Source of the DNA: Candidatus Chisholmbacteria bacterium RIFCSPHIGHO2_01_FULL_52_32
GTDB taxonomy: Bacteria; Patescibacteriota; Microgenomatia; UBA1400; Chisholmbacteraceae
DNA: 64,000 bases
Direction: 5' to 3'
NCBI GenBank assembly: GCA_001816585.1
Contig: MHCJ01000003.1
Coordinates: 426,971-490,970 of the forward strand
The notes below the pieces were generated by a model. The model did not search any database. It worked only from the letters and a program-made list of their open reading frames with translations, and was not told where the DNA came from. Shown one piece after another: positions 31,596 to 52,977 of this stretch (positions within the stretch are counted from its first letter, which is position 1; each line of letters starts with the position of its first letter). The position numbers and the translations under genes were made by a program.

Positions 31596-31604
31596 AATAG
31601 CAGA

Positions 31605-35731: not shown

Positions 35732-36790
35732 CTACCCGGCCAAAACTTGGGTATACACATTGATTGTTTCCCGCGCCGTTTTTTCCCAAGAGAACTTGTG
35801 ATTTTGTCGGTTCCCTTTTTCTATGAGGTGTCCTCTCTCCTTCTCTCCCAGCTTCATGGCTTTGATTATTCCACTTGCAATACTTTCGGTACTCAGTGGA
35901 TCCACGAATATCGCTGCTTCCCCGGCTACTTCCGGTATACTTGCCACTTTGCCAGCCACGACCGGGGTTTTGCACGCGAACGCTTCAAGTATCGGAAGCC
36001 CAAATCCTTCATAGAGGGAAGGTTGGATGTAGGCTTTGGCTTGGCTGTAAATCGCAGCGAGAGTTTCCGGACGGTCTAAGGGAACACTCGAACGGATGTG
36101 CACTCTGCCGCTCAACTTACTTTTTTCAATCGCCGATAGGATTTGTTTTACTTGCGGAAGAGCTTTATCGGCGAACACCCGCCCTACCAAAACCAGATGA
36201 ATATCTGGCATTTCCCGGCGTACCTTTTGCATCGCCGCAATGAGCTTCGTAAGATTTTTATTCGGGTTTACGTCACCGACGTAGAGGAGAAATTTTTTCG
36301 GGAGTGCGTATTTCTTTTTTATCCGTGCGATTTTTTCTTTTGATTGCGGCATAAACGCACCGTCTGCCGCTAAGTGGATGACGTGAATCTTTTCAGGCTC
36401 GATCCCCAAATATTTTGTGATATCTTTTTTGGAATTATAGGAATCCGCAATAATTGCCTCTACACTTCGAATAGCTAAGCGTTGAAGAAAGAACCTTGCC
36501 TTTCCACGCACCCCCGCAGGAAAATCCTTGGGAAAAATCAGGGGAATCACATCGTGGATGGTGACGACCGTTTTTGTCTTCCTTTTCAGAGGAAGTGTAT
36601 GGAAAAAGAGATCGAAGTAGGGGTAGTGGGTAAGATCGGCATTGCGTACAAGGTTTGCTTTTGTTGTCACGATGTACTGATTTTTCTTGTCTATCTTATG
36701 GAGCGCTTCGATAAGCCTTCGGGTATACATCCCAATCCCGCGCGTTTTATGGCCGGTCTTTAACGGAGAGATATCGATCACGACTTTCAT
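35732..36790 (-). CDS. Glycosyltransferase family 4
   Basis: MKVVIDISPLKTGHKTRGIG; C-terminal YEGFGLPILEAFACKTPVVAGKVASIPEV. Confidence 0.8.
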   Translation of the reverse strand: MKVVIDISPLKTGHKTRGIGMYTRRLIEALHKIDKKNQYIVTTKANLVRNADLTHYPYFDLFFHTLPLKRKTKTVVTIHDVIPLIFPKDFPAGVRGKARFFLQRLAIRSVEAIIADSYNSKKDITKYLGIEPEKIHVIHLAADGAFMPQSKEKIARIKKKYALPKKFLLYVGDVNPNKNLTKLIAAMQKVRREMPDIHLVLVGRVFADKALPQVKQILSAIEKSKLSGRVHIRSSVPLDRPETLAAIYSQAKAYIQPSLYEGFGLPILEAFACKTPVVAGKVASIPEVAGEAAIFVDPLSTESIASGIIKAMKLGEKERGHLIEKGNRQNHKFSWEKTARETINVYTQVLAG

Positions 36791-36796
36791 AAGAGA

Positions 36797-36826
36797 ATGA
36801 TTAATGATTAATGGTTAATGATTAAT
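36797..36826. repeat. Heptanucleotide tandem array (ATGATTA) x4, spanning the stop of GT2 36815..37615 and the 5' UTR of GT4 35732..36790
   Basis: atgatta atgatta atggtta atgatta. On the coding strand it reads (TAATCAT)n, giving TAA in all three frames, followed by TCTCTT-ATG. Confidence 0.8.
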
Positions 36827-37615
36827 TTGTCTTGCGTTTTCTTGCGGATGATTGGTCGTATACTTTGCCTCCCAATACTTCATGTAGGCGATCTGCCAAT
36901 GTAAACCGGAGAACAGTGCAAAAATAAATCCGGGAAATCCATCCAGGAAACCTTTGTGCCGAATGTAAATCCGTACAAATGTCACAAGAGGTCTTATGAA
37001 GAAATACTCAAGGAAGTTCCCGCTATTGAGCGCGAGCTTTTTCCTATTCAGCTCCTCGGCTGTGAGCGAGGTATAACGATTGGCGTTGGTCAGGTACCGG
37101 CTGAAGGTTGGGGCTGTGAAGTGTCTCAGATGTCCATTCAATTGCTCCACCCTGCCTTTAACCTCCATCTGCTCATGGACGCTTCTTTGCGGGAGGTAGG
37201 CCTTTCCTTTTCTGAACAACCGGATAACCGGATCGGGGTACTGACCACCTTTATGAAGCCAGGTTCCCAAAAAAAAGTTCTTTCTTTTTATAGCAAAAGC
37301 GGAAAATGGACTCCCTTTTTTGATAACTGAAACAATTTCTTTCGCAAGTTCTTCATCGACTTGTTCGTCCGCATCGAGCTGGAGAATCCAGTCGGATGAG
37401 GCGGCATCGATTGCCATCTGCTTGTTCGTGTGAAACATCGGACGGTTCACCGTTTTTATCACACGTGCTCCGTACCGGCGGGCGATTTGGCGGGTTTTAT
37501 CTTCCGATGAACCATCGACGACAACGATTTCATCGGCAAATGATTTGACGCTTTCAAGACACCTTGGGAGGTTCCCTTCCTCGTTATAGGTCGCGAGGGC
37601 AACGGATAGTTTCAT
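36815..37615 (-). CDS. Glycosyltransferase family 2
   Basis: LSVALATYNEEGNLPRCLESV...IVVVDGSSEDKT...LQLDADE. Confidence 0.8.
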   Translation of the reverse strand: MKLSVALATYNEEGNLPRCLESVKSFADEIVVVDGSSEDKTRQIARRYGARVIKTVNRPMFHTNKQMAIDAASSDWILQLDADEQVDEELAKEIVSVIKKGSPFSAFAIKRKNFFLGTWLHKGGQYPDPVIRLFRKGKAYLPQRSVHEQMEVKGRVEQLNGHLRHFTAPTFSRYLTNANRYTSLTAEELNRKKLALNSGNFLEYFFIRPLVTFVRIYIRHKGFLDGFPGFIFALFSGLHWQIAYMKYWEAKYTTNHPQENARQINH

Positions 37616-39395: not shown

Positions 39396-40148
39396 TTAGA
39401 CGGGTTTAAATAGCCTACTTTTCGTGATCCCGTATTTATGGAGGAGATATTGCCCGAGGACCATGAAGCTTTCCGAGAGAAATTTCGCTCCTGCAAGAAG
39501 CCCGATCGATGAGGATTCCTCATAATAACGGACCGGAATCGGCGCTTCTCCGATGTTCAATCCGTATGAGATTGCAGAAACCGTGAATTGCTGGTCGAAG
39601 ATGAAATCGTTTGAGAATCGCTGGAATGGCACTGTCTTGAGGGTTTTTCGGCTATACGCCCGCATTCCGCTCATGTGCTCTGAGAAATTAACACCGAGGA
39701 TAATATTCGCGATAAGTGAATAGAGGCGGTTAAAAACGTACTTCAATTGCGGCATCCCGCCGGCCAAGGCCTCCGTTCTCGTCCGTATACGAGAGCCGAA
39801 CATGTAATCGTAGCGCTTCTGAATGATCGGTCGGACCAGTTCCGGAATGAGACTGGCGTCGTACTGGTAATCGGGATGGATCATGACTACGATATCCGGG
39901 TTTCTCTTGAGCGCCTCCCAGTAGCAGGTTTTTTGATTGCCGCCGTATCCGAGATTATTCGGATGGACAAATGTTGTGATTCCCAATTTTTTTGAAAGCT
40001 CGACGGTTTTATCTCTTGAGACATCGTCGACCAAGATGATCTCACTGACCCAATCTTTCGGGATGTCGTCGTAGGTCTTCTTTAACGTCTTTTCGGCGTT
40101 ATACGCCGGCATGACGACGATGATGGTTGGCTTGGAAACTTTGTTCAT
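39396..40148 (-). CDS. Polyprenyl-phosphate sugar synthase, GT2 (DPM1-like)
   Basis: IIVVMPAYNAEKTL...ILVDDVSRDKT...MIHPDYQYD. Confidence 0.7.
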   Translation of the reverse strand: MNKVSKPTIIVVMPAYNAEKTLKKTYDDIPKDWVSEIILVDDVSRDKTVELSKKLGITTFVHPNNLGYGGNQKTCYWEALKRNPDIVVMIHPDYQYDASLIPELVRPIIQKRYDYMFGSRIRTRTEALAGGMPQLKYVFNRLYSLIANIILGVNFSEHMSGMRAYSRKTLKTVPFQRFSNDFIFDQQFTVSAISYGLNIGEAPIPVRYYEESSSIGLLAGAKFLSESFMVLGQYLLHKYGITKSRLFKPV

Positions 40149-41776
40149 GTTCTTGTCAGCACAAAGGCGGTCTGGCCGTTCCGAAACTTTACCGTGTCAA
40201 GTACCGTGGCATCAGATGGGATTTCGTCCGGTGCTCCGATGATGAGCGTTCTCGGCAGTTGGCTATCCTTGGCATATTCTACCTTACGGAAGCGGTATTT
40301 TCCAAATCCCGCGGCTCCGCTTTCTGCAACCGATTGATAGTAGCTCGGATCGGTCTTGTCATAGAAAAGAAAAAAGATATAGGGTTGATCGTACCTCTGG
40401 GTCACAATTACCGTCTCCGCGTCGTCCCCAAGGCTGGTGACTATCTCGACCATCTCTTTGTACCCATACTGCCAGTCATGCGAGCGTTCGATGGGGGTGT
40501 GAATGTAATAGAGGTTCAGGTAGTAGACAAAATTAATACATACCAATAAACCAATAAATACCGATACATACCGATTTTTCTTGAGAATTCTCAATGCATG
40601 AATTATTCCGTAGGCGGTGATGATTTGAAGCACCGGGAGCATAAGCAGAGCCCGAACTGCGTGGGGAGCTTGGGTCGTAAGCGCAGAAGCAAGCGGAGCC
40701 ACCGCAAGCCAGGGAAAAATGAGTTTCATACCCGACCACTTATCTTTAATCATCGTATACAGCCCATACAGTAAAAATGGGAATTCCCATAGATACAAAA
40801 GCCCCATTCCCACCGCGCTATGCCTGCCGATCCCGTCACCACGCAAAAATAGGAAATCGAAGTTGAAATGCTTAAGGTATCCTTCGACGATGATCGTGGT
40901 AAAGACCAACGAACGCTGATGGAAAGGAGCAAAGATTGAGCCTCGGTCGCTGTCCTCTGTCCGATACTCTGCTTGGCGCTCGAGACGTTCCTGTTCCTGC
41001 GTATAGATTCCGGGGTTGGTGAAGACGCTTACAACGCTAAATCGTGCTTGGGCTGAGCCACGGATGAAGGTGAGGGCTATCGGTACCATCAGAAAAAGAC
41101 CCACGATAAACCCAAGGCCAATCTCCTTCCATCTTTGAACCAGCAGTTTTCTGAAAATCAGTGCCATAAGAAGAATGAATGCCGGAACGACCGCTCTCGC
41201 TGAGTGATAGGTGTACATCGTCGAGGCAAATGCAATGCTTGAACCAAACAGGAAGACGGCCTTGGCTGAACGGAGCCATTTGAGAAAGAGATACATCGCG
41301 AGGGTGAAAAAGAAGAGCGCGAGATTGGCTTCAAACGCCACGCGAGAAAATTGGAGGTGCCAGGGCGAAATCGCAAGGAGCAGCGCCGCCAGGGCGGCGA
41401 TTGCTATATTGTTAAATTGTTTTATTGTTTTATTGATCGTGAATAATTCTTTGACGAGGAAGTAGGTCACTAAAACTGTGAGGATGCCGGCAAGAGCGGA
41501 AGGAAAGCGAACGGCAAATTCTGTCAGGCCGAAGACCGCAATCGAAGAGACAGCAGCGTACGTATAGAGCGGCGGCTTGTAGTCGTTGAAGGAACGGATC
41601 GCAATGGGAAAGCTATTTCCGTATTCGTCTTTTCCGGTTTTCAAAATGGAGTAGGCGTTATAGCCTATCGACGCCTCATCCCAATCGAGGCTGGGGGGGT
41701 TTTGTCCGAGCTGGTATAACCGTAAAGCAGCCGCGACAAGAAGGATCGTCAGGAGCACTGCCGTTTTTCTCTTCAT
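40145..41776 (-). CDS. GT-C glycosyltransferase, ArnT/PMT-like (GT39-type), paralog A
   Basis: LDWDEASIGYNAYSIL DE-loop, FAVRFPSALAG, LLLAISPWHLQFSR. A C7 tract encodes the NPP near the 5' end. Confidence 0.65.
   Translation of the reverse strand: MKRKTAVLLTILLVAAALRLYQLGQNPPSLDWDEASIGYNAYSILKTGKDEYGNSFPIAIRSFNDYKPPLYTYAAVSSIAVFGLTEFAVRFPSALAGILTVLVTYFLVKELFTINKTIKQFNNIAIAALAALLLAISPWHLQFSRVAFEANLALFFFTLAMYLFLKWLRSAKAVFLFGSSIAFASTMYTYHSARAVVPAFILLMALIFRKLLVQRWKEIGLGFIVGLFLMVPIALTFIRGSAQARFSVVSVFTNPGIYTQEQERLERQAEYRTEDSDRGSIFAPFHQRSLVFTTIIVEGYLKHFNFDFLFLRGDGIGRHSAVGMGLLYLWEFPFLLYGLYTMIKDKWSGMKLIFPWLAVAPLASALTTQAPHAVRALLMLPVLQIITAYGIIHALRILKKNRYVSVFIGLLVCINFVYYLNLYYIHTPIERSHDWQYGYKEMVEIVTSLGDDAETVIVTQRYDQPYIFFLFYDKTDPSYYQSVAESGAAGFGKYRFRKVEYAKDSQLPRTLIIGAPDEIPSDATVLDTVKFRNGQTAFVLTRT
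41364..41470. repeat. 107-nt segment about 98% identical to 47373..47479 (inter-paralog gene-conversion tract), copy 1
   Basis: My manual alignment shows 2 mismatches in 107 nt. The flanks drop to about 80-85% identity. Confidence 0.8.
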
Positions 41777-43323
41777 CGTGGGTTGGAAAGCGGGTACACC
41801 CGAAACAAATACATGAAGCGGTTGCTCTTCCCTTTCTGATATTTCTTTATTAATTCGATATTCTCTTGGGGAGGAATTTGCTCGGGATACGATTCGTAAT
41901 ACACGAAGTAGGCGGGCTTTTTGGCAGCCATCGCACTCACCTCCTGAGGCACTTCCGTTACCGGCCAGAAGCCATGAATTTCAATATTGGGATTGTCCCA
42001 AAGGTAGAGTTCGAAGCTATAGGGCATGAGGCCAAATGTCCCCTGGGTTCCAAGAAAAATCTGCTTGTCTTTGGCTTCTTGTTTCAAGAATGCGATCACA
42101 TCGTCGATCCCCCACCCGGCGGGGAAACCATCAACGTATTGATCGCGGTCGGCCTGAATAATCGGCGCGTTCACCGGATCCGTGAGAACTTTTATGTCCA
42201 GAACCACCGCTGCTATCGTAAGAAAGAGGGCAAAGATCAGTTTTGGCTCGTTCCGTTTGACCGCAGAGAGGATTCGGTCCGTCGCAAGCGATGCTGCTAT
42301 GAGGAGGGGCGGGGTGATAAAGAGCAGATACCGCGCAAAAATCACCTTTCCGAAGGCTGCGGCAACAAGAAAAGGAAGCATTGCATGGATCAAAAGGAAG
42401 ACTAACCCTCTGGCATATTTGCGCAAGGAAAACGGATAGGTTTCGGGCAAGAGGACAAGACAAAAGCCCACGATTGCCGTTGTCATGACCGGCCAGGTCA
42501 ACCAGCCGACCCACCAGCGCCAAAGGCTCGGGAGGTTCCCCCAAAACCATCTCGTAGGATGTCCGAAAAATTCTCCGATGGTCGTGACGAACTCCAGGTT
42601 TTTTCGTCCGATCATGTGCATCCAGGGAGAGAGACGCATGATGTTTCGCATCGCTTCGGCTATGGCAAATGTTGGAACTGTAAGGAGGGCCCAGCGGACG
42701 ATATTTCTTTTTTCTCTTCCGGCAAAGAGGAGATTCAGCGGATAGAGATACTGAAAAAAAGCAGCCGGTGACTTTGTGAGAAGGCCTGCTCCCATGGCGA
42801 AACCGGTAAGCATTGCGTTGTCGAGCTTAAGGCTCTTTGCCGTTTTTACACCAAAATACAGCGTCCAGATTCCCCACATGGAGAGCATGGAATCGACCAA
42901 CGCAATCCGATCGTAAAATAGGGTGAATGGCGTGAGGAGGTAGAGGGCACTCGCCGTGAAGGCTGCGTTCTTGTTTTGAAAAAGCTCTTTTGTCAGAAAC
43001 CAGATCCCGACCGCTGCACCAAGACCGGACAGCGCGGAAACGGCCCTTCCGGCGATAAGCGGATCAGAAATAATCTTCATCGCAGCTATGGTAAACCAGT
43101 GCCAGAGCGGTTGTTTTCCGTCGGTCAACGGGATAAATCGGAGGGAGGCATCATGCAGGGCAATTTGACTCCAACGCGTATAGATGGCTTCGTCCGTGAA
43201 GATCGGCCATAACCGAAGATTCGTCAGCCTGGTTGTTAAATAAACTATCATCAGACCAGCCAGAATCCTGATTTCTCTGAGTGATACCAGGAACGGTCTT
43301 TTGATTTTTTGCGGTGTTTTCAT
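41773..43323 (-). CDS. GT-C glycosyltransferase, ArnT/PMT-like, divergent paralog
   Basis: IFTDEAIYTRW DE-loop; multi-TM. Confidence 0.55.
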   Translation of the reverse strand: MKTPQKIKRPFLVSLREIRILAGLMIVYLTTRLTNLRLWPIFTDEAIYTRWSQIALHDASLRFIPLTDGKQPLWHWFTIAAMKIISDPLIAGRAVSALSGLGAAVGIWFLTKELFQNKNAAFTASALYLLTPFTLFYDRIALVDSMLSMWGIWTLYFGVKTAKSLKLDNAMLTGFAMGAGLLTKSPAAFFQYLYPLNLLFAGREKRNIVRWALLTVPTFAIAEAMRNIMRLSPWMHMIGRKNLEFVTTIGEFFGHPTRWFWGNLPSLWRWWVGWLTWPVMTTAIVGFCLVLLPETYPFSLRKYARGLVFLLIHAMLPFLVAAAFGKVIFARYLLFITPPLLIAASLATDRILSAVKRNEPKLIFALFLTIAAVVLDIKVLTDPVNAPIIQADRDQYVDGFPAGWGIDDVIAFLKQEAKDKQIFLGTQGTFGLMPYSFELYLWDNPNIEIHGFWPVTEVPQEVSAMAAKKPAYFVYYESYPEQIPPQENIELIKKYQKGKSNRFMYLFRVYPLSNPR

Positions 43324-43363
43324 GGTTTAGGTTTCTGTTCCTCTATGAGGGCAAAATAACTTT

Positions 43364-44806
43364 TTACTGCCTTTCAGTATACCATCTCTGAGGGATCACC
43401 CCGAGAATAAGCGGCGGGAGAGCGATCGTTGCGAGCATCGCGATTTGCCAAAAGAAGTTCAGGGGGTAGAGATAGAAGGAGGCGAAGAGAACCGCATAAT
43501 AGAGAAGGCTCGTATAGGAAGACAAGAGAACAACCGCCTGGAGACGACCTCTCGGAAGAATGGCAGCAAACGGCAGTATCCAGGCAAGATACCATGGTTG
43601 AAGCATCGGGGAAACCAGTACGAGATAGAGAAGTATGATGACAACCATTCCTGCGATGACCCCCGTCCTTCGGATACGGCTTAGGGCGCCGGTCAACAGC
43701 AGAAGGAATGGGGGAATGGTCACCAACTTCTCTGCCCATACCGCTTGTCCCTTCTCAAATCCCATTTTAAGAAACATAAATCGTACAGCGGTGGGGAACG
43801 AGCGGAGGTAGAGTTCGAGTTGAACGCCGAGATTTCCGATGAAACCCCTCAGACCCTCCCCCAGGCTTAAGAACCCCCCGAGTGTCATAAGCGAAAACCA
43901 GGAGAGGAATCTTACAGCATCTCTTCGCTTCCCTTGCAGGAAAAGCCACCACCCAAAAATCGGCACAAAAAGGATCGCGACAACCTTGGCAAGAACCGCA
44001 AGGGCAAGGGCAGCCGCAGCGATCATCAGCCGTCCTTCGAAAAACCAATAGAATCCCAACAGCGAGAAAAACGCCATCACCATATCGTTATGGGCATTTC
44101 CGACAATCTCTATATGGATAAGTGGATTCCAGGCAAAGAGGGCAAGACCGTAGAGGAAGTTGTCCGGACTGTATTTTTGAAACCACTTTTTTAAAAGCAC
44201 GATTGTGGCCAATGTAAAAATCCCTCCCATGAACTTGAAACCAATTACATTCATGAGGAGGTCATCTTTTGCGAACACGTGGATCAATGAAGATGTGAGA
44301 AACTGCACCGGCCCGTACACCGAGGCACGAAACTTCCAGGATCCTAAATAGATAAACGGATCTTGGGGGAAGTTTTGCGGGGGCTCGATCCAGGGGTTTG
44401 CGTGGTGGACAAAAAGAACCCTGTTTGAAGCGATGTAATCAAAGACATCGGTTGAGAGCGCCGGAAACGAAAGAAATGTTGTTATTAGGAATGCGGCCGC
44501 ATATCGAAGAACAATCTTTGATGACGTCGATTGTCCTGATGATTGGTTCCGCAATAACCGCAGCGCTTTGGCGTACACCACGAACATCGCCGTAACCGTG
44601 AGGAAATATAGCAAGGTTGGGATGCTGTTGACGTGAAGCAATTTTGCCAGTTCTCTCCCCTTCTCCAGGAAACCGGGGGAGTCGGTCAGGAACGCGATGC
44701 GCTCGAGCAAAAAATCATCGCGCAGGAAGATGAGGTAGCTTACAACAGCGTATACCGCATAGAGAACTGCCAGAGTGATTCCGTATCGCTTAAGTTCTTT
44801 TCCCAT
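43364..44806 (-). CDS. Polytopic membrane protein, DUF2029/PimE(GT87)-like putative GT-C mannosyltransferase
   Basis: LSTDVFDYIASNRVLFVHHANPW loop; paralogous to the downstream gene. I chose the internal ATG (MGKELKRYGITLAV) at 44806 because the track start at 44890 would overlap its neighbour by 101 nt. Confidence 0.45.
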   Translation of the reverse strand: MGKELKRYGITLAVLYAVYAVVSYLIFLRDDFLLERIAFLTDSPGFLEKGRELAKLLHVNSIPTLLYFLTVTAMFVVYAKALRLLRNQSSGQSTSSKIVLRYAAAFLITTFLSFPALSTDVFDYIASNRVLFVHHANPWIEPPQNFPQDPFIYLGSWKFRASVYGPVQFLTSSLIHVFAKDDLLMNVIGFKFMGGIFTLATIVLLKKWFQKYSPDNFLYGLALFAWNPLIHIEIVGNAHNDMVMAFFSLLGFYWFFEGRLMIAAAALALAVLAKVVAILFVPIFGWWLFLQGKRRDAVRFLSWFSLMTLGGFLSLGEGLRGFIGNLGVQLELYLRSFPTAVRFMFLKMGFEKGQAVWAEKLVTIPPFLLLLTGALSRIRRTGVIAGMVVIILLYLVLVSPMLQPWYLAWILPFAAILPRGRLQAVVLLSSYTSLLYYAVLFASFYLYPLNFFWQIAMLATIALPPLILGVIPQRWYTERQ

Positions 44807-46160
44807 CGTTTGTGAACAGATACACCCCAATCGGAGGCACAACGAGAAATGCGTAGATTGCAAGTGTCCAGAGCGGATTTGTATAGTCAAAGCGATGGGA
44901 AGTAAAGAGGATGGCGTACTGGAGGCTTGAGGTCGCCGAGAAGGTAAGCGCGGCCTTCGTGAGCTTTGTTATCGGAAGCAAACTTAGGAAAGGGAGATAC
45001 CATATCGGATACCATGCCCAATAGAGCGTGACGACGAACATAAGGTATACCAGGGTCAACTTCACGTAGGCTGCCACAAGTTCCTTTTCGCTACCGATGG
45101 TTCGGACCGTGAACAAGGCAAAGAGCACAAACGGCAACGTAAAGATCCAATCCGGAATCATATTCAGAAGATTTGGTAAAGAATTCAACTTCAGTGTTGC
45201 TACCCACCCGAAGAGTTGCAGTTGATTGATGATGGATTCTTTTCCCATGAACCAACCGCCTGCAACCATCACTACCATAAACCCTAAAAGAAGCGATGCA
45301 GTCTTTCCAAGATCGGTTGTTTTTTTCAAGTTCAAAAAGATGTAGAACGGGAGGAGGACAACGGCGTAGAGTTTCACCAATGTCCCTAAAGCGATAAACA
45401 TCCCGGAGAGCAAGAAACGCTGTTTCCTTAGGGCAAGGAGACTTACAAGCATAAACGTCACCATGATGATATCGTTATGGGCGTTTCCCGCCGTTTCGAT
45501 GAGAAGCAAGGGGTTCAGTGCGAATAGCGCAAGCGCTCTGGTTTTGTTTCTTTCTCCAAGAAGTCTCATGACCGTGTAACACCCAAGAACCGTAAAGGCA
45601 ATCATCAGCAATTTAAATCCGAGGAGCGAAGCCGCAAGATTGTTCAATCCGAGGATGGCCGGAATTATCGTGAGCAGATGATGTACCGGACCATAGACGC
45701 TGGTTATTCTTGGCCAGCTCGCGAGGTTAATGAACGGATCGCCCGGAAAGTCAATTGCAGGCACGGTCCATGGGTTCTTGCCATAAACAAAGGGAATTCT
45801 CGTGTTGAGAATGTAGTCGAACACGTCCGATGAGAGTACCGGATAGGAAAAGAGTACGATCCCTTGAAAGGCAAGCGACCAGAGAAGGATGTTTCTCGGC
45901 CTCTGGATTGTTACCCATTGACCTCTTAGGATCTTTACGTAGCAAAAGAATGCCGAGAGTAAAATAGCGAATAAGAGTACCGTTGGAATCGTATTCAGAT
46001 GAAAAGGCAACGCTTGCTCACGGAATTGAACCAGGGTTTGCCCGACCGAAGGGTAAAACTGAGCGATTGCATCGAGGGCCCAGTCGTTTCGAAGGAGCAG
46101 AATATAGCTTAGGAAGGTATAAGCAAGGAAGCTTAGTCCTAAAAGCACAAGGTACTTCAT
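44790..46160 (-). CDS. Polytopic membrane protein, DUF2029/PimE(GT87)-like putative GT-C mannosyltransferase (paralog)
   Basis: LSSDVFDYILNTRIPFVYGKNPW; collinear with the 43364..44806 protein. Confidence 0.45.
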   Translation of the reverse strand: MKYLVLLGLSFLAYTFLSYILLLRNDWALDAIAQFYPSVGQTLVQFREQALPFHLNTIPTVLLFAILLSAFFCYVKILRGQWVTIQRPRNILLWSLAFQGIVLFSYPVLSSDVFDYILNTRIPFVYGKNPWTVPAIDFPGDPFINLASWPRITSVYGPVHHLLTIIPAILGLNNLAASLLGFKLLMIAFTVLGCYTVMRLLGERNKTRALALFALNPLLLIETAGNAHNDIIMVTFMLVSLLALRKQRFLLSGMFIALGTLVKLYAVVLLPFYIFLNLKKTTDLGKTASLLLGFMVVMVAGGWFMGKESIINQLQLFGWVATLKLNSLPNLLNMIPDWIFTLPFVLFALFTVRTIGSEKELVAAYVKLTLVYLMFVVTLYWAWYPIWYLPFLSLLPITKLTKAALTFSATSSLQYAILFTSHRFDYTNPLWTLAIYAFLVVPPIGVYLFTNDGKRT

Positions 46161-47791
46161 CGGAGCTCCCCAATCTCAAATGCCACTTCTCCATCGGGGA
46201 AGTAAACAAGTTCAAGGCGTTTTGCCTCTTTGGGCAATTCCGTCGGGGCTGCAACTATAAGCCATTTTTGGTTCTGGCTTGAACTTTTGTCCGGAATGCC
46301 TCCGAATCTATACCTGTCAAAACTTTCAACCGTCCAAAACCCATACCAATCTCGCTGGGCAACCCTGGTAGTCCAAAAGAGCCGAGGATCGAAACCTTGG
46401 TAGAAAAGCAGGTAGATATATGGCCGGCCATACTTGTTCGTGATAAAGACCTGATCGTAATCCCCCTGCATTTGGGAAACGCGGTTAATCATCTGTTTGT
46501 AGCCGTACTGCCAGGATCCCGCCCATTTGTCCGGATAGTGAACGAAATAGGTATGGAGATAGCTTGTGGCAAATAGAACATAGCTTATGGATAAAACGAT
46601 CAGATACAAACGCTTTTTTTTAACTATTTGGTAGAGTGCAATCGCCCCAACGGATGCAATAATTTGCGGTACCGGAAGGACATTGAGGGTGCGCAATGCG
46701 TGAGGTGTTTCGCGTGCTGTCGCCGCTGGGATAACGCCAACGAGCCACCAAAAAAATAAAATTATGGCAGCCGGATGTTTTTTTCTGATCAAGAAGTAGA
46801 TGCCGGCAAGAATAAGCGGCAGTTCAGTTGGATAAAATATCCCTTGGTCACGTGTCCCCAGTCTCGGATTGCCGTCTCCCGAAACGAACAGAAAATCCGC
46901 ACGAAAATGGTCTGCGTAATGCTTGGCAAACTCCAGGGAAAACTGAACCCTTCGATTATGCAGGATCCTTGACCACCATGCGTTGTTGTCCCTGGCTATC
47001 CGTTCATTTGCGGTCACCACCGGGTCAAGATTCTTAAAGATTGTTACCTCTTCAAAACGAAGCCTGCCTTCGCGGGAGAGGAGGAACGGTATCTGAGGAA
47101 CAACAAGTGCTATCCCCAGCACTATCGCCACTACTGTCCATCTCTTTTGTGCAAACAGCTGGCTTCGATAAATCGCTGCCAATCCGAGTACGAGGAGAGG
47201 CACGAATATCCGATGAGTATTGAAGGTGTACATGGAGAAAGCGAAAAGGATAAAACTCAAAACTAAAAACTTTCCATTTTTCATGCCTTTCATAAACAAA
47301 TACACCCCAGCGATGCTGAGGAATGTGGCGAGGTTTGCTTCAAATGCTGCTCTGGAAAATTGGATATGCCATGGCGAAATCGCAAGGAGCAGCGCCGCCA
47401 GGGCGGCGATTGCTATATTGTTAAATTGTTTTATTGTCTTATTGATCGTGAATAACTCTTTGACGAGGAAGTAGGTCACGAGGACCGTGAGGGTGCCGGC
47501 AAGGGCGGACGGAAAACGGACGGCAAATTCGTTTAGACCAAAGAGAGCAATCGAGGGAACCGTTGCGTAAATGTATCCGGGTGGTTTGTAGTCACCAAAA
47601 GCGATAAAACGAGCAATCGGAAGAAATTCTCCATGTTCATCACGACCGGTTGTAAGAATACTGTACGCGTTATATCCCAGGGACGCCTCGTCCCAGTACA
47701 ATGACGGGGGAGTTGTCCCGAGTCTGTAGAATCGAAGCACGACCGCGAGGATAATGATGGCGAGTAGTGTAATTATTTCTTTCTTCTTCAT
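46157..47791 (-). CDS. GT-C glycosyltransferase, ArnT/PMT-like (GT39-type), paralog F
   Basis: LYWDEASLGYNAYSIL. It shares a 107-nt near-identical segment with paralog A. Confidence 0.65.
   Translation of the reverse strand: MKKKEIITLLAIIILAVVLRFYRLGTTPPSLYWDEASLGYNAYSILTTGRDEHGEFLPIARFIAFGDYKPPGYIYATVPSIALFGLNEFAVRFPSALAGTLTVLVTYFLVKELFTINKTIKQFNNIAIAALAALLLAISPWHIQFSRAAFEANLATFLSIAGVYLFMKGMKNGKFLVLSFILFAFSMYTFNTHRIFVPLLVLGLAAIYRSQLFAQKRWTVVAIVLGIALVVPQIPFLLSREGRLRFEEVTIFKNLDPVVTANERIARDNNAWWSRILHNRRVQFSLEFAKHYADHFRADFLFVSGDGNPRLGTRDQGIFYPTELPLILAGIYFLIRKKHPAAIILFFWWLVGVIPAATARETPHALRTLNVLPVPQIIASVGAIALYQIVKKKRLYLIVLSISYVLFATSYLHTYFVHYPDKWAGSWQYGYKQMINRVSQMQGDYDQVFITNKYGRPYIYLLFYQGFDPRLFWTTRVAQRDWYGFWTVESFDRYRFGGIPDKSSSQNQKWLIVAAPTELPKEAKRLELVYFPDGEVAFEIGELR
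47373..47479. repeat. 107-nt segment about 98% identical to 41364..41470, copy 2
   Basis: Same alignment as copy 1. Confidence 0.8.
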
Positions 47792-47808: not shown

Positions 47809-48165
47809 CTACTTCAGCATCTTTTGGAGTTCGAACAGAAAGACCAGCGGGTAGAGCGCGATGATTAAGTAAAGTACGTTCCATGCTTTTCCTCCCCTTT
47901 TGGCGATGAAGTAGAGGACTGCAAGGAAAGCGATCGCGCCCAGAGGACTTAATACCTCACCTAAGAACTTCGGCGAAAGGTAGTGGAAGTAGCAGCGGGC
48001 GTAATTGAGGAAGAAAAACACCGGTTTGTTGTGCAAAACCCGTGTGAGCCATAAGGGAGTACCGCTTGGTCCATCCGTCGTAATTGCTTCCCAGATTTGG
48101 AGAGGGACATCGGTGGTAATTGCCACATGCGTGCAGAACAATCCTTCCATAGTTATATCTCCCAA
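47809..48165 (-). CDS. Small hypothetical membrane protein
   Basis: 118 aa with two or three hydrophobic helices, embedded in the paralog array. No recognisable motif. Confidence 0.3.
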   Translation of the reverse strand: MGDITMEGLFCTHVAITTDVPLQIWEAITTDGPSGTPLWLTRVLHNKPVFFFLNYARCYFHYLSPKFLGEVLSPLGAIAFLAVLYFIAKRGGKAWNVLYLIIALYPLVFLFELQKMLK

Positions 48166-49688
48166 ATGTTAAATACCGTATCGCCATTTACCATTTTTAT
48201 CTGTTCGTAACCGGTCTTTTCGTCCGGCTTCTGCCAGAATGGCGCGATAATTAGGGCTCGTTTCCCAGTTTTGGCAATCTCCCAAGCGTATTGGAAGTAC
48301 TTCACTTTCCCCATCTCTTTTGCGGGGTTCGAGAGTTTGTGATAATCCGAAGGCTCAACGGGAAGGTAAAACGCAACGTAAAGTGGTGGTAGTGCATCGC
48401 TCACAAATATTTCGTCGTATGCGTCCCATCGCTTTGCAATTATCTCCACCGTTTCTTTTATTCCGTCTTGCCAATCGAGGGCTGTCTCCCGCGGATAATG
48501 GATGTAGTACTGATGGATGTACAACAGGATGTTGTAACCAACTGCCAGAGCGAGTACACCCAGTACCAAAATTCTGGTTGCCTCCCGTTTTTGACGGTTG
48601 ATTACCTTCAGTACCCCTACGGCTCCGATTGCCGTTATGATCTCCCACGCCGGAAGCATGTTCAAAGTACGGATCGCATGGGGATTGATGTTTGAGAGGG
48701 AAACCGATACGGGAGCAAGGAGAAGCCAGGCAAATACCATGTTTCTTCCGTTCCCTTTTCCTTTGATCAGGGTCCGGAGGCCGAGAAGAACCAGCGGCAG
48801 TTCAAATACATAGAGCATTCCAAGCTTTCTTACACTGTGCCTTCCATTTTGATCACCTCTGAAAAAGAGAAATGTGGTATCGAAATTTGCGAGATAATTT
48901 TCAAACACTTTGGGGAAGAGCTTTTCTTTTCCGATGATGCTTTCGGAATACGCACGGATGACCGCTTCTCCCGAAATGATCGACGGGACAAAGGGAAGAC
49001 TTAAGATCACACCCGTTACGACAGCGGTGGCAAGATCCCTTTTTGCTTTCATTACATTCTTCCTGCAAATCCAGACCAAAGCCAGGAGTATAAGGGGTGC
49101 AAACAAGCGTGTGCTGATATACGTAGCTGCGGAGAGTAAGAACAAGATGACAGAAACGGTTAACCACATCCCATGTTTACGAAGTGATACAAGAAATGCG
49201 TACCACCCTGCAACAAGGAAGAACAAGGCGAGGTTCGCCTCAAAGCCTCCCCGAGAAAATTGGAGATGCCATGGCGAAATCGCAAGAAGCAGTGCAGCTA
49301 CTGCCGCAATGGCTGATGGCTGATGGCTGATGGCTGATGGCTTTTTTTCAAACAGTTCAACGACGAGGAAGTACATCAGAAGAACCGTGAGGGTGCCGGC
49401 AAGGGCGGAGGGGAAACGGACGGCAAAATCCGATCTGCCAAGGAGCTTTACACTGATGGCTGCTATGTAAATATAGCCCGGATATTTGTAGTCTCCAAAA
49501 GCCCGAAAACTTACCGGTAAACTTTTTCCATATTGGTCCTTTCCCGTTTGCGCAATGGAGTATGCGTTATACCCGATCGAAATCTCATCCCAGTAGAGCC
49601 CGGGTGGCATTACGGCAAGATTGTAAAACCTTAAGACTCCGGCCAGGATCGTGATTAAGCTTAAGAGGAGGATCGTTTTCGCTTTCAT
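48153..49688 (-). CDS. GT-C glycosyltransferase, ArnT/PMT-like (GT39-type), paralog G
   Basis: LYWDEISIGYNAYSIA. The loop insert KKPSAISHQPSAISHQPSAI is encoded by (GCTGATG)4. Confidence 0.65.
   Translation of the reverse strand: MKAKTILLLSLITILAGVLRFYNLAVMPPGLYWDEISIGYNAYSIAQTGKDQYGKSLPVSFRAFGDYKYPGYIYIAAISVKLLGRSDFAVRFPSALAGTLTVLLMYFLVVELFEKKPSAISHQPSAIAAVAALLLAISPWHLQFSRGGFEANLALFFLVAGWYAFLVSLRKHGMWLTVSVILFLLSAATYISTRLFAPLILLALVWICRKNVMKAKRDLATAVVTGVILSLPFVPSIISGEAVIRAYSESIIGKEKLFPKVFENYLANFDTTFLFFRGDQNGRHSVRKLGMLYVFELPLVLLGLRTLIKGKGNGRNMVFAWLLLAPVSVSLSNINPHAIRTLNMLPAWEIITAIGAVGVLKVINRQKREATRILVLGVLALAVGYNILLYIHQYYIHYPRETALDWQDGIKETVEIIAKRWDAYDEIFVSDALPPLYVAFYLPVEPSDYHKLSNPAKEMGKVKYFQYAWEIAKTGKRALIIAPFWQKPDEKTGYEQIKMVNGDTVFNIWEI
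49307..49343 (-). repeat. Intragenic heptanucleotide tandem repeat (GCTGATG)4 plus a degenerate flank, next to a T7/A7 tract
   Basis: Read directly: gcaatg gctgatg gctgatg gctgatg gctgatg gct ttttttt. It encodes SAISHQP repeats in paralog G. Confidence 0.85.
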
Positions 49689-51352
49689 CTTTTCATGATT
49701 GAAACTGTCGGTTCACCGTTTGGAAGTCTAATGACCTTCAGCGCTTCATCCCTTTGTGATTTGGGCGTCTGTGCATAGAGATCAACAAGCAGCACCGGAG
49801 TTTCCGATGGACCTTCGCTGTAATTGATAGGTTGAAATAGAAACTTCCCGAATTTATTTTTGGTTTCCAGAAATCCTCCGGAAACCGTACCTCCGTCGAT
49901 ATTTATGTACGTCCACGGATCGTATTTTGTGTAGAACGCGAAGAAGTTCTGCGGTTGTCGGAGGTTGGTGGAAACGATCACTTTCGAGTTTTCGTCTTTA
50001 TGAAGATCAGCGTACTCCGCCGCCTCTTTATATCCATACTGCCAACTTTCCGCAAACTCAAGCGGCCCATGGACATAGTACTGATGGAGATAGTGATATA
50101 CGCTTCCGGCAACGAGTACGGCCGAAAGCATGAAGGTGACTATGCGCAAACCCTTCCTCATTTTCTTAACTGCGGCAAGAGCGGTAAGGACGCCGACTGC
50201 CGAGAAAATTTGCAGTGTCGGCAACGCTACGGTCATCCTTACTGAGCTTGGGATATCCCACGTCAGTGCCGAGGCAACCGGCGACAAAAGAAACCAACCG
50301 AGGAGAATTCCGAATGGCCGGCGGTCCTTGAGATGTGCCATTTTGCAGAGTCCGAGAAGAATAAGCGGCAATTCACCAAGGTAGAGGAGACCGACGTTCG
50401 GCGCATGATTGTACGGCATCCCTTTCGTTCCTAAGAATAAAAGGTCTGGTTGAAAGTGCTTTAGATAGCCGTCGCTAACCGTCAGAAATCCGGCGAAGTA
50501 TCGGTTGTGCAGGAACTTCACCCCCAGCCAGTCTTGTCTTTGAGCATCAACTACTCTCCTTCCTGTTTCTTTCTCAACAAGTCCCGGGTGCTCGAAGACG
50601 CTGGTTCCCTTAAATCGCATGAGCCCTGCTTGGGAAAATAGAATTGGGGAAAGCGGAAGGCTGAGGATTAAGAAAGCGAATGCCGCAATGCAGGCATCTC
50701 GCCTTTTTAGCCAAATGGTTTTCCCGTAAATTCCGGCAAGGGCGACCAAAAAGAGCGGAATAAAAAGCCTCGAAGTTTGATAGGTGTACAAAGAGAGGCT
50801 GAAGCTTGCCGCCGTGCCTATCCACCAACGGCCGTTTCCTCGAATACCTTTGAGAAATGTCCAGACGCCTAAAACGGTTAGGAATACCGCGATGTTGGTT
50901 TCAAATGCAACACGGGAGACCTGAAGGTGCCATGGCGAAATTGCGAGGAGAAGTGCGGCGATTTCGCCAACTGAAAACTGAAAACTGAAAACTGACAACT
51001 TTAGCCTCGGGAAAAGTTCCCTCACAAGAAAATAGGTCAAGAGGACCGTGAGAGTGCCGGCAAGGGCGGAGGGAAAGCGGACGGCAAATGGATTGAGGCC
51101 GGAGGCTGCAATTGAGGGAACCGAGAGGTAAATATACAGGGGCGGTTTGTAATCGTCGTGGGAGCGAAAGACGAGCGGCAAGCGCTTCCCATACTCATCC
51201 ATTCCCGTTTTGAGAATTGAGTAGGCGTTATAGCCGATCGCGACTTCATCGAGGTTCAGGCTTGGAGGATTTTTTCCGAGTTGATAGAATCGCAGCACCG
51301 CGGCGAGCGTGACTATAGCTGCTAGGGTAAATCCTGTTCGCATTTCCCTCAC
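49685..51352 (-). CDS. GT-C glycosyltransferase, ArnT/PMT-like (GT39-type), paralog H
   Basis: LNLDEVAIGYNAYSIL. The loop insert LKLSVFSFQFSV is encoded by (AACTGAA)3-4. Confidence 0.65.
   Translation of the reverse strand: MREMRTGFTLAAIVTLAAVLRFYQLGKNPPSLNLDEVAIGYNAYSILKTGMDEYGKRLPLVFRSHDDYKPPLYIYLSVPSIAASGLNPFAVRFPSALAGTLTVLLTYFLVRELFPRLKLSVFSFQFSVGEIAALLLAISPWHLQVSRVAFETNIAVFLTVLGVWTFLKGIRGNGRWWIGTAASFSLSLYTYQTSRLFIPLFLVALAGIYGKTIWLKRRDACIAAFAFLILSLPLSPILFSQAGLMRFKGTSVFEHPGLVEKETGRRVVDAQRQDWLGVKFLHNRYFAGFLTVSDGYLKHFQPDLLFLGTKGMPYNHAPNVGLLYLGELPLILLGLCKMAHLKDRRPFGILLGWFLLSPVASALTWDIPSSVRMTVALPTLQIFSAVGVLTALAAVKKMRKGLRIVTFMLSAVLVAGSVYHYLHQYYVHGPLEFAESWQYGYKEAAEYADLHKDENSKVIVSTNLRQPQNFFAFYTKYDPWTYINIDGGTVSGGFLETKNKFGKFLFQPINYSEGPSETPVLLVDLYAQTPKSQRDEALKVIRLPNGEPTVSIMKR
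50969..50996 (-). repeat. Intragenic heptanucleotide tandem repeat (AACTGAA)3 plus a degenerate unit
   Basis: aactgaa aactgaa aactgaa aactgac. It encodes SVFSFQFSV in paralog H. Confidence 0.8.
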
Positions 51353-52977
51353 TCCTTTGTCAAGAACTGCATAGCGATCGTCTGATCGGGCCTTCTTACG
51401 ACGTTCACTACTTTTGCTCCTTTAACTTCACCGCACTCTCCTACGTTTCCGTAGAGTGTTTTTCCCTCCGCCACTGTACGTTCATTCAATGGACAAGGGT
51501 CTCTGACGAAACGAACTTTCTCTCCAAAATCCCAATCTCCTTGAACGTTTCTTTTGTCATTTACAAGCTTCTGCGCAAGAGAAGGATCAGTTTTTGTAAA
51601 GAACAGGAAGTACAAATATGGCTCTGTCCCTGATTTACTGATGAGAATTTTGTCATACTTGCTTTGGACCTGGTTTACGTAGGCTACGATCTCCGGGAAC
51701 TGGATATTTCTGTTCCATGGCTGATGCAAGGGCTGATGGATAGTGTACTGATGGCTGAATCGTCCAATCTCCCAGACGACCCCAACAACGAATAAAACTG
51801 TTACCAGCGTACGCAGTAGCTTGGCTCTTTTTTGCACTTTTCTGTAAACAAACACGAACCCCATCGCCGTAATGATCTGAAAACCGGGGAGCATGAAGAC
51901 CGATCGTTGAATGTTGGGCGCATCTTCGGTTGTTAACGCTGCCGGAAGACCTCCTGCGAGAAACCAAAATAGTGCGTAGGCACTTGAAAGCTTGAATCGT
52001 TTTACTGCGGCGAAGAGCCCGAGGAGGAAAAAAGGCGCTTCAAACCAATACTGCAAAGTTTGTTCCGGAACCACATAGCGAGTCGGGTAACCGCCTTGGA
52101 CGAACAGGAAATTGAGACTTACGTATTTGAAATACTCCCGAAAGAACTCGCGAGCGCTGTTCTCGACTTTATTGTGAAAGAGGCGCGTCACCACAATGGG
52201 GAGCCCCACGCCCCCATCTTCCAGGAATGATGTTTGGAGGCGTGCCACGGCTGACTGGGGTGTAATATTGCCAATCTGTCGGTAGCGAGCAAGTCCGGCT
52301 CCGCTTTGTATCGTCACCCATACCGGCAGGACGGTAAAGAGCGCCAGCATGAGCGACAACACCAACGCTTGGGATTTTCGGTGCTTTACTAAAAGGAAAA
52401 TGATCCAAAAGAGCGCGTGGATATAGATGAACGGTCGTACTCCAATGTAGGAAAAGTACGTTACGACCCAGGAAAGATAGGTTAGCAGCAGTAATGCTGT
52501 ACCCTTGGATTTTACCCAAGACACCAGCAAAAGCATTGATCCCAAAAAGAAAACGAGGCCGAGAGCTCCGTCTGTCGTCGACCGCGAGAGGATGATGTGC
52601 CACGGGGAAACGGCAAACAGAGCACTTGAGAGTAATGCCAGTTGTTCGTCGTCAAAAAGCTTTTTGACAAGAACATATGTGAGGAAGACGGCAAATACCC
52701 CAAGAAGCGCAACCGAAAACCGTACGGCAAACACATTGACACCGAAGAGCGCTATCCAAGGGGACGTAAGGTACATCGAAAGCATTGGGCGGGCTTCGTT
52801 GTAAAAACTGGTATGGAGTGGTAAGAAGTTCCCGTTTTCGTCGCGGAGAGTTTTTAAGATCGAGTAGGCGTTATAGCCCACCTGAACTTCATCCATATCG
52901 AAGCCTGCCGGGAAACGGTCAAGCCATAGAAGCCGCAAGATCGCTGCCAGAATTAAAATCAGATACAGTTTCTTCAT
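51349..52977 (-). CDS. GT-C glycosyltransferase, ArnT/PMT-like (GT39-type), paralog I
   Basis: FDMDEVQVGYNAYSIL; FAVSPWHIILSR. Confidence 0.6.
   Translation of the reverse strand: MKKLYLILILAAILRLLWLDRFPAGFDMDEVQVGYNAYSILKTLRDENGNFLPLHTSFYNEARPMLSMYLTSPWIALFGVNVFAVRFSVALLGVFAVFLTYVLVKKLFDDEQLALLSSALFAVSPWHIILSRSTTDGALGLVFFLGSMLLLVSWVKSKGTALLLLTYLSWVVTYFSYIGVRPFIYIHALFWIIFLLVKHRKSQALVLSLMLALFTVLPVWVTIQSGAGLARYRQIGNITPQSAVARLQTSFLEDGGVGLPIVVTRLFHNKVENSAREFFREYFKYVSLNFLFVQGGYPTRYVVPEQTLQYWFEAPFFLLGLFAAVKRFKLSSAYALFWFLAGGLPAALTTEDAPNIQRSVFMLPGFQIITAMGFVFVYRKVQKRAKLLRTLVTVLFVVGVVWEIGRFSHQYTIHQPLHQPWNRNIQFPEIVAYVNQVQSKYDKILISKSGTEPYLYFLFFTKTDPSLAQKLVNDKRNVQGDWDFGEKVRFVRDPCPLNERTVAEGKTLYGNVGECGEVKGAKVVNVVRRPDQTIAMQFLTKE

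Follow-up and report, generated by a model that had tools for sequence, protein, structure and literature searches.

The opa genes of Neisseria are full-length, expressed, surface-related paralogs whose variable segments are shuffled by short-tract gene conversion, and slippage of their coding repeat CTCTT, which is not a multiple of three, switches them on and off. In Helicobacter pylori, intragenomic non-reciprocal recombination between the paralogs babA and babB produces chimeras, and a gene can gain or lose a slippage-prone repeat in this way. Heptanucleotide coding repeats cause frameshift-mediated on/off variation in Neisseria pgl genes such as pglE. The tufA/tufB genes and the rRNA operons undergo concerted evolution, with copies that are near-identical over their full length. 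In the pilE/pilS, vlsE, tprK, and msp2 systems, short variable segments are copied non-reciprocally from silent cassettes into an expressed gene.

The locus compared here with these systems lies in a 64-kb stretch of DNA from a Candidatus Chisholmbacteria genome (the window, i.e., the whole stretch analysed) and comprises an array of paralogs, two of which, A and F, carry a near-identical tract that is very probably the footprint of recent short-patch gene conversion between ancient GT39/PMT_2 paralogs. The array resembles opa in its full-length paralogs, the short-tract conversion of variable segments, and a coding repeat that is not a multiple of three. However, opa genes encode outer-membrane adhesins of a cultivated pathogen, whereas the genes studied here encode putative GT-C glycosyltransferases of an uncultivated CPR bacterium, and the opa repeat belongs to the signal-peptide region and is separate from the hypervariable loops, whereas the 7-nt unit found here is located inside the exchanged loop. 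As in babA/babB, conversion can alter both the sequence and the switchability of a gene, but bab conversion runs over long tracts, from hundreds of bp to kb, with 5' CT dinucleotide repeats, while the tract described here is internal, does not exceed 107 bp, and apparently took a switch-like repeat away from F rather than adding one. The pgl genes also contain heptanucleotide tandem repeats within glycosyltransferase ORFs, but their products have a GT-B/GT-A fold instead of GT-C, and in the present array an inter-helix loop with only 4-5 repeat units is a hotspot common to many paralogs. A literature search for heptanucleotide repeats together with glycosyltransferases retrieved only Haemophilus SSR papers. 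Conversion is seen as tracts with homogenised synonymous sites, as in tufA/tufB and the rRNA operons; unlike those copies, the paralogs are 37-45% identical and a single short, loop-centred patch is homogenised. The non-reciprocal copying of a short variable segment is shared with the silent-cassette systems, in contrast to which A and F are both full-length and intact, a dedicated initiating element was not observed, and the frequency is apparently on an evolutionary scale rather than per generation. Silent-cassette antigenic variation of the pilE/pilS type was rejected, because A and F are intact ORFs and the rest of the window contains no partial tract copies; with two full-length partners, there are no silent or promoterless donor cassettes.

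The members of the array that are central to the analysis all lie on the minus strand, which for A and F corrects an earlier description:

40145-41776, minus strand: gene A, 543 aa, putative GT39/PMT_2 GT-C glycosyltransferase
46157-47791, minus strand: gene F, 544 aa, GT39/PMT_2 paralog, 6 kb from A and in the same orientation
48153-49688, minus strand: gene G, PMT_2 paralog
49685-51352, minus strand: gene H, PMT_2 paralog
51349-52977, minus strand: paralog I, the most divergent PMT_2 copy in the array, used as outgroup

Gene A matches the Pfam families PMT_2 (E=5e-11) and PMT (E=5e-9) with scores that exceed the curated cut-offs; across A, B, F, G, and H, the scores are 33-54 bits for PMT_2 (cut-off 26.1) and 25-41 bits for PMT (cut-off 22.7). 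Paralog I, whose loop is short and without a repeat, matches PMT_2 only. The AlphaFold model (pLDDT 82.5, pTM 0.83) has a GT-C multi-helix membrane fold, in which helices at residues 86-113 and 120-135 of the A copy flank a loop at residues 114-119. The best Foldseek matches in the PDB are STT3, ArnT (5ezm, 5f15), PglB, AglB, and Pmt4 (E 1e-7 to 1e-5, TM ~0.5); a PDB search by sequence alone with the family profile gave no match at E<=0.01. The residues D33 and E34 of the WDE motif in the first loop after TM1 are invariant in a 20-sequence alignment, and the intact ORFs of A and F both retain every family-invariant residue. By family profile and predicted fold, A, F, and their paralogs are assigned to the polyprenyl-phosphate-sugar dependent GT39/PMT_2 family, with the corresponding activity predicted.

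The paralogy of A and F is old and predates the tract, as they fall into separate clades and occupy conserved positions. With the tract region masked, the ortholog clades of A, F, G, and H each receive 100% bootstrap support, and outside residues 78-165 the A and F proteins are 37% identical. Four other genomes retain the positions of the A and F clades: L006 and L007 have kept the gene order H-G-113aa-F-D-C-B-A-GT2, and L008 and L009 the relative positions of the A and F orthologs.

Against this background, the two copies of the tract stand out:

41364-41470, minus strand: tract copy in A, codons V103-P138
47373-47479, minus strand: tract copy in F, codons V105-P140
41429, minus strand: site of an A/F mismatch, where copy A has an A/G polymorphism among natural strains

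The copies align without gaps at 105/107 bases, confirming the two differences counted in the earlier note, and both mismatches are synonymous (GAA/GAG for Glu and AAA/AAG for Lys). They are the only two copies in the window with up to three mismatches allowed, where none is expected by chance. In A, the tract takes in the third transmembrane helix over its C-terminal half, the variable loop TINKTIKQFNN, and the fourth helix as far as AISP, with the 3' limit at the second base of the Pro codon; the tract had been described as covering the hypervariable loop, which it does, and the whole AISPWH motif, of which it reaches only AISP. The surrounding identity, earlier put at 80-85%, is in fact 53% in DNA and 45% in protein for A and F gene-wide, and values of 82-88% are confined to ~60 nt on each side of the tract, which encode motifs conserved across all paralogs. 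The corrected background of 53% makes the contrast of the tract stronger than it had been given: the binomial probability of 105/107 is ~1e-26 against 53% and ~5e-6 against a local background of 85%. The first 23 nt of the tract (VTYFLVKE) are conserved at the nucleotide level also in other paralogs and species and are therefore uninformative, so that the informative converted core may be only ~60-83 nt. F contains the 25-nt core GCCATGGCGAAATCGCAAGRAGCAG without mismatch (47368-47392) and A contains it with one mismatch; the reported recurrence in G is exact, although 3 nt from where it had been placed (49268-49292), whereas the copy reported in H (50929-50953) carries three mismatches.

The identity profile between A and F peaks at 97-100% in the tract, compared with ~40-55% across most of the gene. 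In a GENECONV-style test, the fragment score of this pair is 48, whereas 1000 permutations never exceeded 21 (p <= 0.001). Identical residues are encoded by identical codons at 33/36 positions in the tract but at only 65/161 outside it (Fisher p = 7e-9), while the rate in other paralog pairs is 37-43%; synonymous sites of the pair are homogenised in the tract only. GENECONV, RDP, and codeml were approximated by home-made scripts on the assembled sequences. The fragment score, the synonymous comparison inside and outside the tract, and the excess over the gene-wide average, which the earlier note had named as ways to separate gene conversion from selection, all favour gene conversion.

Weaker traces of homogenisation were detected in the flanking arms:

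41471-41545, minus strand: upstream arm of A, encoding EFAVRFPSALAGILTVL; the F counterpart is at 47480-47554
41319-41363, minus strand: downstream arm of A, encoding PWHLQFSRVAFEAN; the F counterpart is at 47328-47372
47484-47509, minus strand: 26-nt exact match between F and G within the upstream arm; the G copy is at 49384-49409

The upstream arms of A and F are ~82-88% identical, the synonymous sites of the paralogs are partly homogenised there, and the BLAST alignment of A and F around the tract extends over 227 nt at 87%. Identical codons in the 25 codons upstream number 13/19 for F-G, 14/22 for F-H, and 12/18 for G-H, compared with ~40% elsewhere, and the fragment permutation gave p ~0.002-0.004 for the same three pairs. 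The 26-nt match suggests that F, G, and H were homogenised too, but more weakly or longer ago. A larger and older conversion between A and F around the tract was rejected, because upstream of it F is at least as close to G and H as to A.

In all strain contigs examined, both copies carry the tract, and the F copy has the same sequence in 9/9 strain contigs that contain F. The strains L002 and L005 have G at 41429 in copy A, as in F, so that A and F differ at only 1/107 positions in strains with this base. The conversion is young, since one of its two A/F differences is still polymorphic in copy A. In the nearest relative, L006, the A and F loops differ from each other and both are unrelated to the tract loop. 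The conversion falls after the divergence from the nearest sequenced relative and before the sampled strains diversified.

Exchanges of this kind have also taken place at the loop in other genomes. Conversion within genomes was screened by maximal exact matches in place of a BLAST filter (>=92% identity, >=45 nt), which had returned mostly overlapping-ORF artefacts and missed the A-F case. Among 474 within-locus paralog pairs from 83 loci, the longest exact match is that of A and F, and the other long exact matches are concentrated at the same loop. In two further Chisholmbacteria-like assemblies, the A and F orthologs have other loop cassettes in common. Those of L009 have a common cassette that is unlike the A/F tract cassette, and paralogs in L074, L080, and L068 have common loops although their proteins are 31-36% identical. 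The A gene on L099 and the F gene on L100, two contigs of one sample, have a 45-nt exact stretch and a 21-nt repeat indel in common; the two contigs were assigned to one genome on the basis of complementary gene content, though they may belong to two. Loops are shared in 3/32 comparable same-locus pairs versus ~0/3261 cross-genome pairs with low backbone identity, counts that are conservative because the regex loop extraction skipped short or atypical loops (L074, L068). Loops of the same type are also found in different paralog clades across genomes. The proposal that the paralogs exchange loop cassettes by recombination is thereby supported, both by the sharing of loops within genomes and by loop types that cross clades.

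Three other explanations of the tract were weighed. Conserved flanks in a metagenome-assembled genome could draw reads of one paralog to the other and homogenise the consensus during assembly or polishing. However, the tract was found in independent assemblies from more than 10 samples and several studies (NCBI GCA_001816955.1, JGI 3300025313, and multiple ENA ERZ272548xx and ERZ4903xxx samples), and the two copies recur in assemblies of several projects, including their fixed difference at tract position 24, so the tract is not an assembly artefact. The JGI contig L005 carries the tract, whereas a 26-nt core of it gave 0 hits in a metagenome contig collection that evidently lacks this organism. 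Besides, a single contig (L002) spans both tract copies, and the 107-nt repeat is shorter than a typical read and than the k = 141 that the contig names imply, all of which makes an artefact exceedingly improbable. The identity would need no recombination if purifying selection acted on an element at the nucleotide level (a structured RNA, a protein-binding site, or an internal promoter, for example), and some flanking codons, e.g., GCGATTTCGCC for AISP, are indeed unusually conserved synonymously across paralogs and related species. However, the orthologs of A and F in the nearest relative have unrelated loops, and loops of the same type are 67% identical to that of the nearest relative and 67-71% identical between species. 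The tract matched no Rfam family at E<=1, its predicted RNA fold was not better than that of shuffled sequence (z = -1.4), and a scan of the tract detected no promoter-like or terminator-like site. Selection of this kind is largely refuted and hardly credible as the cause.

A third donor, either a GT39 paralog elsewhere in the genome or DNA of a related strain or species, might also have converted A and F independently. Cassettes clearly travel, given that the same loop types occur in different clades and genomes, and the search for further copies covered 64 kb of a genome with a contig of at least 1.16 Mb. On the other hand, two events with nearly the same end points would be required, the window contains no third copy of the tract, the A clade already has related loops, so that A needs no donor, and the sharing of loops is strongly enriched within genomes, which together render a third donor very unlikely, if slightly less so than the other two alternatives. 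Taken together, the homogenised synonymous sites, the old paralogy, the lack of RNA or promoter signals in the tract, and its presence in multiple samples make short-tract gene conversion between A and F the best explanation.

In this conversion, non-reciprocal homologous recombination overwrote ~60-107 bp, comprising the variable loop that links the third transmembrane helix to the fourth, along with the adjacent helix ends. The A and F copies now have the same sequence, as expected of donor and recipient after a non-reciprocal event. The direction was probably from A to F, judging from the distribution of loop types: the A-clade orthologs P0003 and P0005 have a related loop, while F is the sole member of its clade with the tract loop type, and its relatives L006_F and P0127 carry NSKFEIRNSK. 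Nevertheless, L006_G, too, has the type-1 loop and L006_A the G-type loop, which means that loops have moved repeatedly, leaving ancestral states ambiguous and the A to F direction not secure. The event may have been primed by short nucleotide-conserved arms, TACTTCCTCGTC upstream and CTGCTCCTTGCGATTTCGCC downstream, through RecA-type recombination on minimal homology or through template switching during repair. With exact runs of 12-26 nt, the arms only just reach, or fall short of, the homology that efficient RecA recombination usually requires. The tandem repeats of the loops may cause breaks or stalls that start paralog-templated repair. F probably lost a slippage-prone heptanucleotide loop like that of its closest ortholog, and its replacement loop would be degenerate, stable, and 8-nt-periodic. 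The conversion would thus have changed 12-16 loop residues in F and removed a potential on/off switch.

The loop is a hotspot for 7-base tandem repeats, and its repeat arrays differ among the paralogs:

41400-41435, minus strand: degenerate 8-nt periodic array in the A tract, with CAAT recurring at 8-nt intervals on the coding strand; F carries the same array at 47409-47444
49309-49342, minus strand: heptanucleotide array in the G loop, perfect (CCATCAG) x4.9 on the coding strand, encoding PSAISHQPSAI
50969-51000, minus strand: heptanucleotide array in the H loop, perfect (TCAGTTT) x4.6 on the coding strand, encoding SVFSFQFSV

A natural variant of G, P0242, lacks 21 nt in frame, and a natural variant of H, L096, has one unit fewer (-7 nt), which shifts the frame and leaves two ORFs, of 152 and 311 aa. 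Two features of contingency loci are thus present in the G and H loops, a repeat within the ORF that is not a multiple of three and a natural polymorphism in repeat number, with a frameshifting allele in H. The converted tract in A and F has only a degenerate periodicity (85% matches) and lacks such a polymorphism; the 8-nt array is of constant length across 8 protein variants and 14 tract copies on strain contigs, and the shortening in P0247 concerns the C-terminus only.

Gene conversion between paralogs is textbook biology, and the tract is unsurprising in itself; its value lies in its context, arrays of GT-C paralogs in CPR bacteria in which recombination has rewritten one variable loop time and again. 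A host-attached life that depends on the cell surface is assumed for the uncultivated CPR bacteria, and contingency loci are known mainly from cultivated pathogens. The rewriting of the loop, combined with frame-shifting heptanucleotide repeats that vary in the population, appears to be a genomic signature of contingency loci. No directly relevant report of phase variation or heptanucleotide repeats in glycosyltransferases of CPR/Patescibacteria was found in a limited literature search. It can be proposed, as a tentative idea somewhat short of an even chance, that the loop joining transmembrane helices three and four in Microgenomates GT39 proteins is a portable contingency module, in which repeat slippage and conversion generate combinatorial surface glycosylation. 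The heptanucleotide repeats in the loop may switch single paralogs on and off through slippage, conversion among the arrayed paralogs may move, replace, or erase loop modules, and the conversions may be set off by the repeats themselves, acting as lesions. Together, slippage and conversion may provide episymbionts of small genome size with varied surface glycosylation. The loop is a concrete locus at which the rates of slippage and conversion could be measured in existing metagenomic reads, and paralog trees built from the loop region will mislead. Moreover, "pseudogenes" of metagenome-assembled genomes that are split at such repeats may be phase-off alleles and not the product of decay.

The two copies of the near-identical tract lie within intact genes for two GT-C-fold glycosyltransferase paralogs, A and F, and align without gaps:

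40145–41776, minus strand: gene A, an ORF of 543 aa that holds one tract copy
41364–41470, minus strand: tract copy in A
46157–47791, minus strand: gene F, an ORF of 544 aa that holds the other tract copy
47373–47479, minus strand: tract copy in F

The alignment bore out the earlier note's observation of two segments differing at 2 of 107 positions (105/107 identical). Each of the two mismatches falls on a third codon position and is synonymous: GAA vs GAG for Glu, AAA vs AAG for Lys. The surrounding background, put at 80–85% identity in that note, proved far more diverged, at 53% for DNA and 45% for protein in the codon alignment and 37% for protein without residues 78–165. Identities of 82–88% are confined to about 60 nt on either side of the tract, and these flanks encode motifs common to all paralogs (FAVRFPSALAG and ISPWHLQFSR). 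The note's reading of the tract as gene conversion agrees with both the synonymous comparison and a GENECONV-style permutation test. Codons are homogenised inside the tract, where 33 of 36 identical residues use identical codons, vs 65/161 elsewhere (Fisher p = 7e-9) and 37–43% in all other paralog pairs, and the A–F fragment score of 48 compares with a maximum of 21 in 1000 permutations. Therefore, purifying selection on the protein cannot explain the identity of the tract.

With the curated Pfam cut-offs applied, paralogs A, B, F, G, and H match both PMT_2 and PMT, and I matches PMT_2 alone. All six belong to a large glycosylation cluster of a Candidatus Chisholmbacteria (Microgenomates, CPR) genome, including GT2, GT4, GT87/MptA-like, YfhO-like, and epimerase genes. 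The AlphaFold model of A (pLDDT 82.5, pTM 0.83) has a multi-helix GT-C architecture, with STT3, ArnT, PglB, AglB, and Pmt4 as the closest solved structures, and the D-E motif following the first helix is invariant. The tract covers A residues V103–P138, comprising the C-terminal half of helix 86–113, the loop 114–119, and helix 120–135. The parity of the helix count, compared with known GT-C topologies, would put the tract loop on the outer side, together with the catalytic D-E loop.

The A/F duplication itself is old. The order H-G-(113-aa ORF)-F-D-C-B-A-GT2 is preserved in two loci from other assemblies, L006 (from the closest relative, GCA_015665585.1, whose orthologs are 67–71% identical to those of the window) and L007, and the relative positions of the A and F orthologs are maintained in loci L008 and L009. 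In a neighbour-joining tree with residues 78–165 masked, A, F, G, and H formed separate clades, each with 100% bootstrap support, and the loops of the L006 A and F orthologs are unrelated (PSTLHPQPSTL and NSKFEIRNSKL). A and F are thus ancient paralogs whose tracts must have become identical secondarily, after the split from L006.

Other origins of the identity were weighed. An assembly artefact is very improbable, as both copies, including the fixed difference at tract position 24, are present in independent NCBI (GCA_001816955.1, contig MHCM01000003.1), JGI, and many ENA assemblies, one independent assembly carries A and F on a single contig, and the 107-nt repeat is shorter than one read. 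Hardly more credit can be given to a conserved element at the nucleotide level. The tract has no Rfam match, its RNA fold is unremarkable (z = −1.4), and no promoter-like or terminator-like sites were found in it. Moreover, loops of the same type are just 67% identical when this genome is compared with L006 (71% for the G-type loop), so no constraint keeps the nucleotide sequence fixed over time. A third donor that converted both A and F is unlikely, since it would require two events with almost the same ends; the search for further copies (up to three mismatches), which covered the 64-kb window only, returned two, with none expected in shuffled sequence.

Conversion between A and F can be placed in time. 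Strains of this species differ by about 0.05–0.1% across the locus, and the tract is present in A and F of every one. The F copy is invariant, while the A copy is polymorphic (A/G) at 41429, one of the two A/F differences, and in strains with G the copies differ at just 1 of 107 bases. The conversion is therefore older than the diversity among the sampled strains and was followed by at least one of the two substitutions. Judged from the sequences, the direction was more likely A to F: related loops (KKTMKQWNHLAI and QTTKPWSNEAI) occur in the A clade, in proteins P0003 and P0005, but nowhere else in the F clade, where the closest relatives of F have NSKF-type loops. The case for this direction is weakened by a swap of loops between genomes: in the window, A is type 1 (TINKTIKQ) and G is PSAISHQ, but in L006, A is G-type (PSTLHPQ) and G is type 1. 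The swap implies that either A and G traded loops reciprocally or one lineage underwent two conversions, and the loops have clearly moved several times.

Exchange of loop cassettes between paralogs, as the earlier note proposed, was encountered in further loci. The 65-nt exact match between A and F of the window is the longest among 474 within-locus paralog pairs from 83 loci, and many of the other long matches among these pairs fall in the same gene region. The A and F orthologs of L009 have a different cassette in common, SLNIKHQTLNI, and are 36% identical outside the region; the A ortholog of this locus and the homologous protein P0007 have entirely different cassettes despite 88% identity outside the region. 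Two paralogs in L074 (34% identical) have a common (ATCACTT)×4.5 loop, two in L080 (31%) have about 130 nt in common at about 85% identity, and two in L068 (36%, local alignment) have the 3′ half of the loop in common. In L099/L100, two contigs from one JGI sample, A and F orthologs 45% identical share 45 nt exactly and about 94% over 72 nt, with a 21-nt repeat indel. Across genomes, each of five loop types turns up in two or more paralog clades. Loops are shared far more often within genomes, in 3 of 32 comparable same-locus pairs, than between them, where 3261 pairs gave two spurious cases. F and G also have a 26-nt exact match in the upstream flank (F 47484–47509, G 49384–49409). Over the 25 codons upstream of the loop, F/G/H pairs have 64–68% identical codons vs about 40% elsewhere, a mild synonymous homogenisation as would be expected from repeated conversions with their ends in the flanks; it suggests smaller or older conversions among F, G, and H as well.

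The loops of G and H homologous to the tract consist of perfect heptanucleotide arrays:

49309–49342: (CCATCAG)×4.9 in the loop of G
50969–51000: (TCAGTTT)×4.6 in the loop of H

The A/F tract has only a degenerate 8-nt periodicity, and no length variants of it were found. An H allele lacking one unit (L096 455–474, sample ERZ27254846) is frameshifted into ORFs of 152 and 311 aa, and a G allele (P0242, SRR3989344) lacks three units (21 nt) with the frame kept; this variation in unit number looks like slipped-strand phase variation. The loop is enriched in such arrays: among 234 family members from other Microgenomates, loop arrays of at least 3 copies have period 7 in 10 and period 8 in one, vs such arrays in 8 of 2491 control windows. 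Short tandem repeats in Microgenomates glycosylation loci are mostly of period 7: the window and L006–L088 (83 loci, 1.55 Mb) contain 30 perfect period-7 arrays of at least 3.5 copies, vs 7, 2, 1, 1, and 0 for periods 4, 5, 6, 8, and 9–12, respectively. When isolated mismatches are allowed, period-7 arrays total 33, of which 26 fall within intact ORFs of 300 aa or more. The loop repeat pattern, as far as sequence can tell, is the signature of contingency loci.

In L009 (representative of Chisholmbacteria RIFCSPLOWO2_01_FULL_49_14), (AGTAAGG)×4 at 8373–8401 interrupts a gene, and in-silico removal of two units regains a 499-aa ORF, so that the gene may be a phase-off allele, not a pseudogene. 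Seven further period-7 arrays are present in the window, several with AATGAAT-like units:

26592–26614 and 26751–26778: inside ORF 26195–27385
30443–30483 and 31604–31637: in stretches without an ORF of at least 150 aa
36796–36826: at the junction of a GT2 ORF (36815–37615) and the start of a GT4 gene (35732–36790)
47252–47271: within F, at about residue 173
54627–54663: inside the YfhO-like ORF 53886–56147

Within 30337–30483, directly downstream of the array 30443–30483 on the minus strand, an ORF of 22 codons starting MKVLITGGAGF duplicates the N-terminus of the epimerase gene, whose true start is at 30337 (MKILITGGAGFIGT...), and may be a remnant of a 5′-end duplication or of a recombination event. 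The YfhO-like gene of L100 (1210–3377, JGI 3300041077) is broken into ORFs of 449 and 205 aa; its window ortholog has a heptamer array at about residue 494, and no clear array was seen at the break in L100.

At most 107 bp, with the variable loop at the centre, were copied non-reciprocally between A and F. The copied patch is bounded by arms that are conserved at the nucleotide level and have exact runs of 12–26 nt, and recombination or template switching may have been primed on them; for RecA-type exchange, the arms are short. The loop's own repeats would be a plausible trigger; arrays prone to slippage stall replication and undergo repair from a homologous template. The conversion seemingly swapped a switch-like loop in F for a stable one, since the closest F ortholog, in L006, has (AATTCGA)×4.6.

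The closest analogues are the opa genes of Neisseria and babA/babB of H. pylori, where conversion between paralogs goes together with frame-shifting coding repeats, and a further one is the Neisseria pgl system, which includes glycosyltransferase genes with heptanucleotide repeats. A silent-cassette antigenic variation system was ruled out because A and F are both intact genes. The tract itself, a gene conversion between paralogs, is a known kind of event. A hotspot of conversion and slippage in one GT-C paralog loop across a CPR lineage appears to be undescribed in the literature searched, and this surrounding pattern is a more interesting lead than the tract itself.
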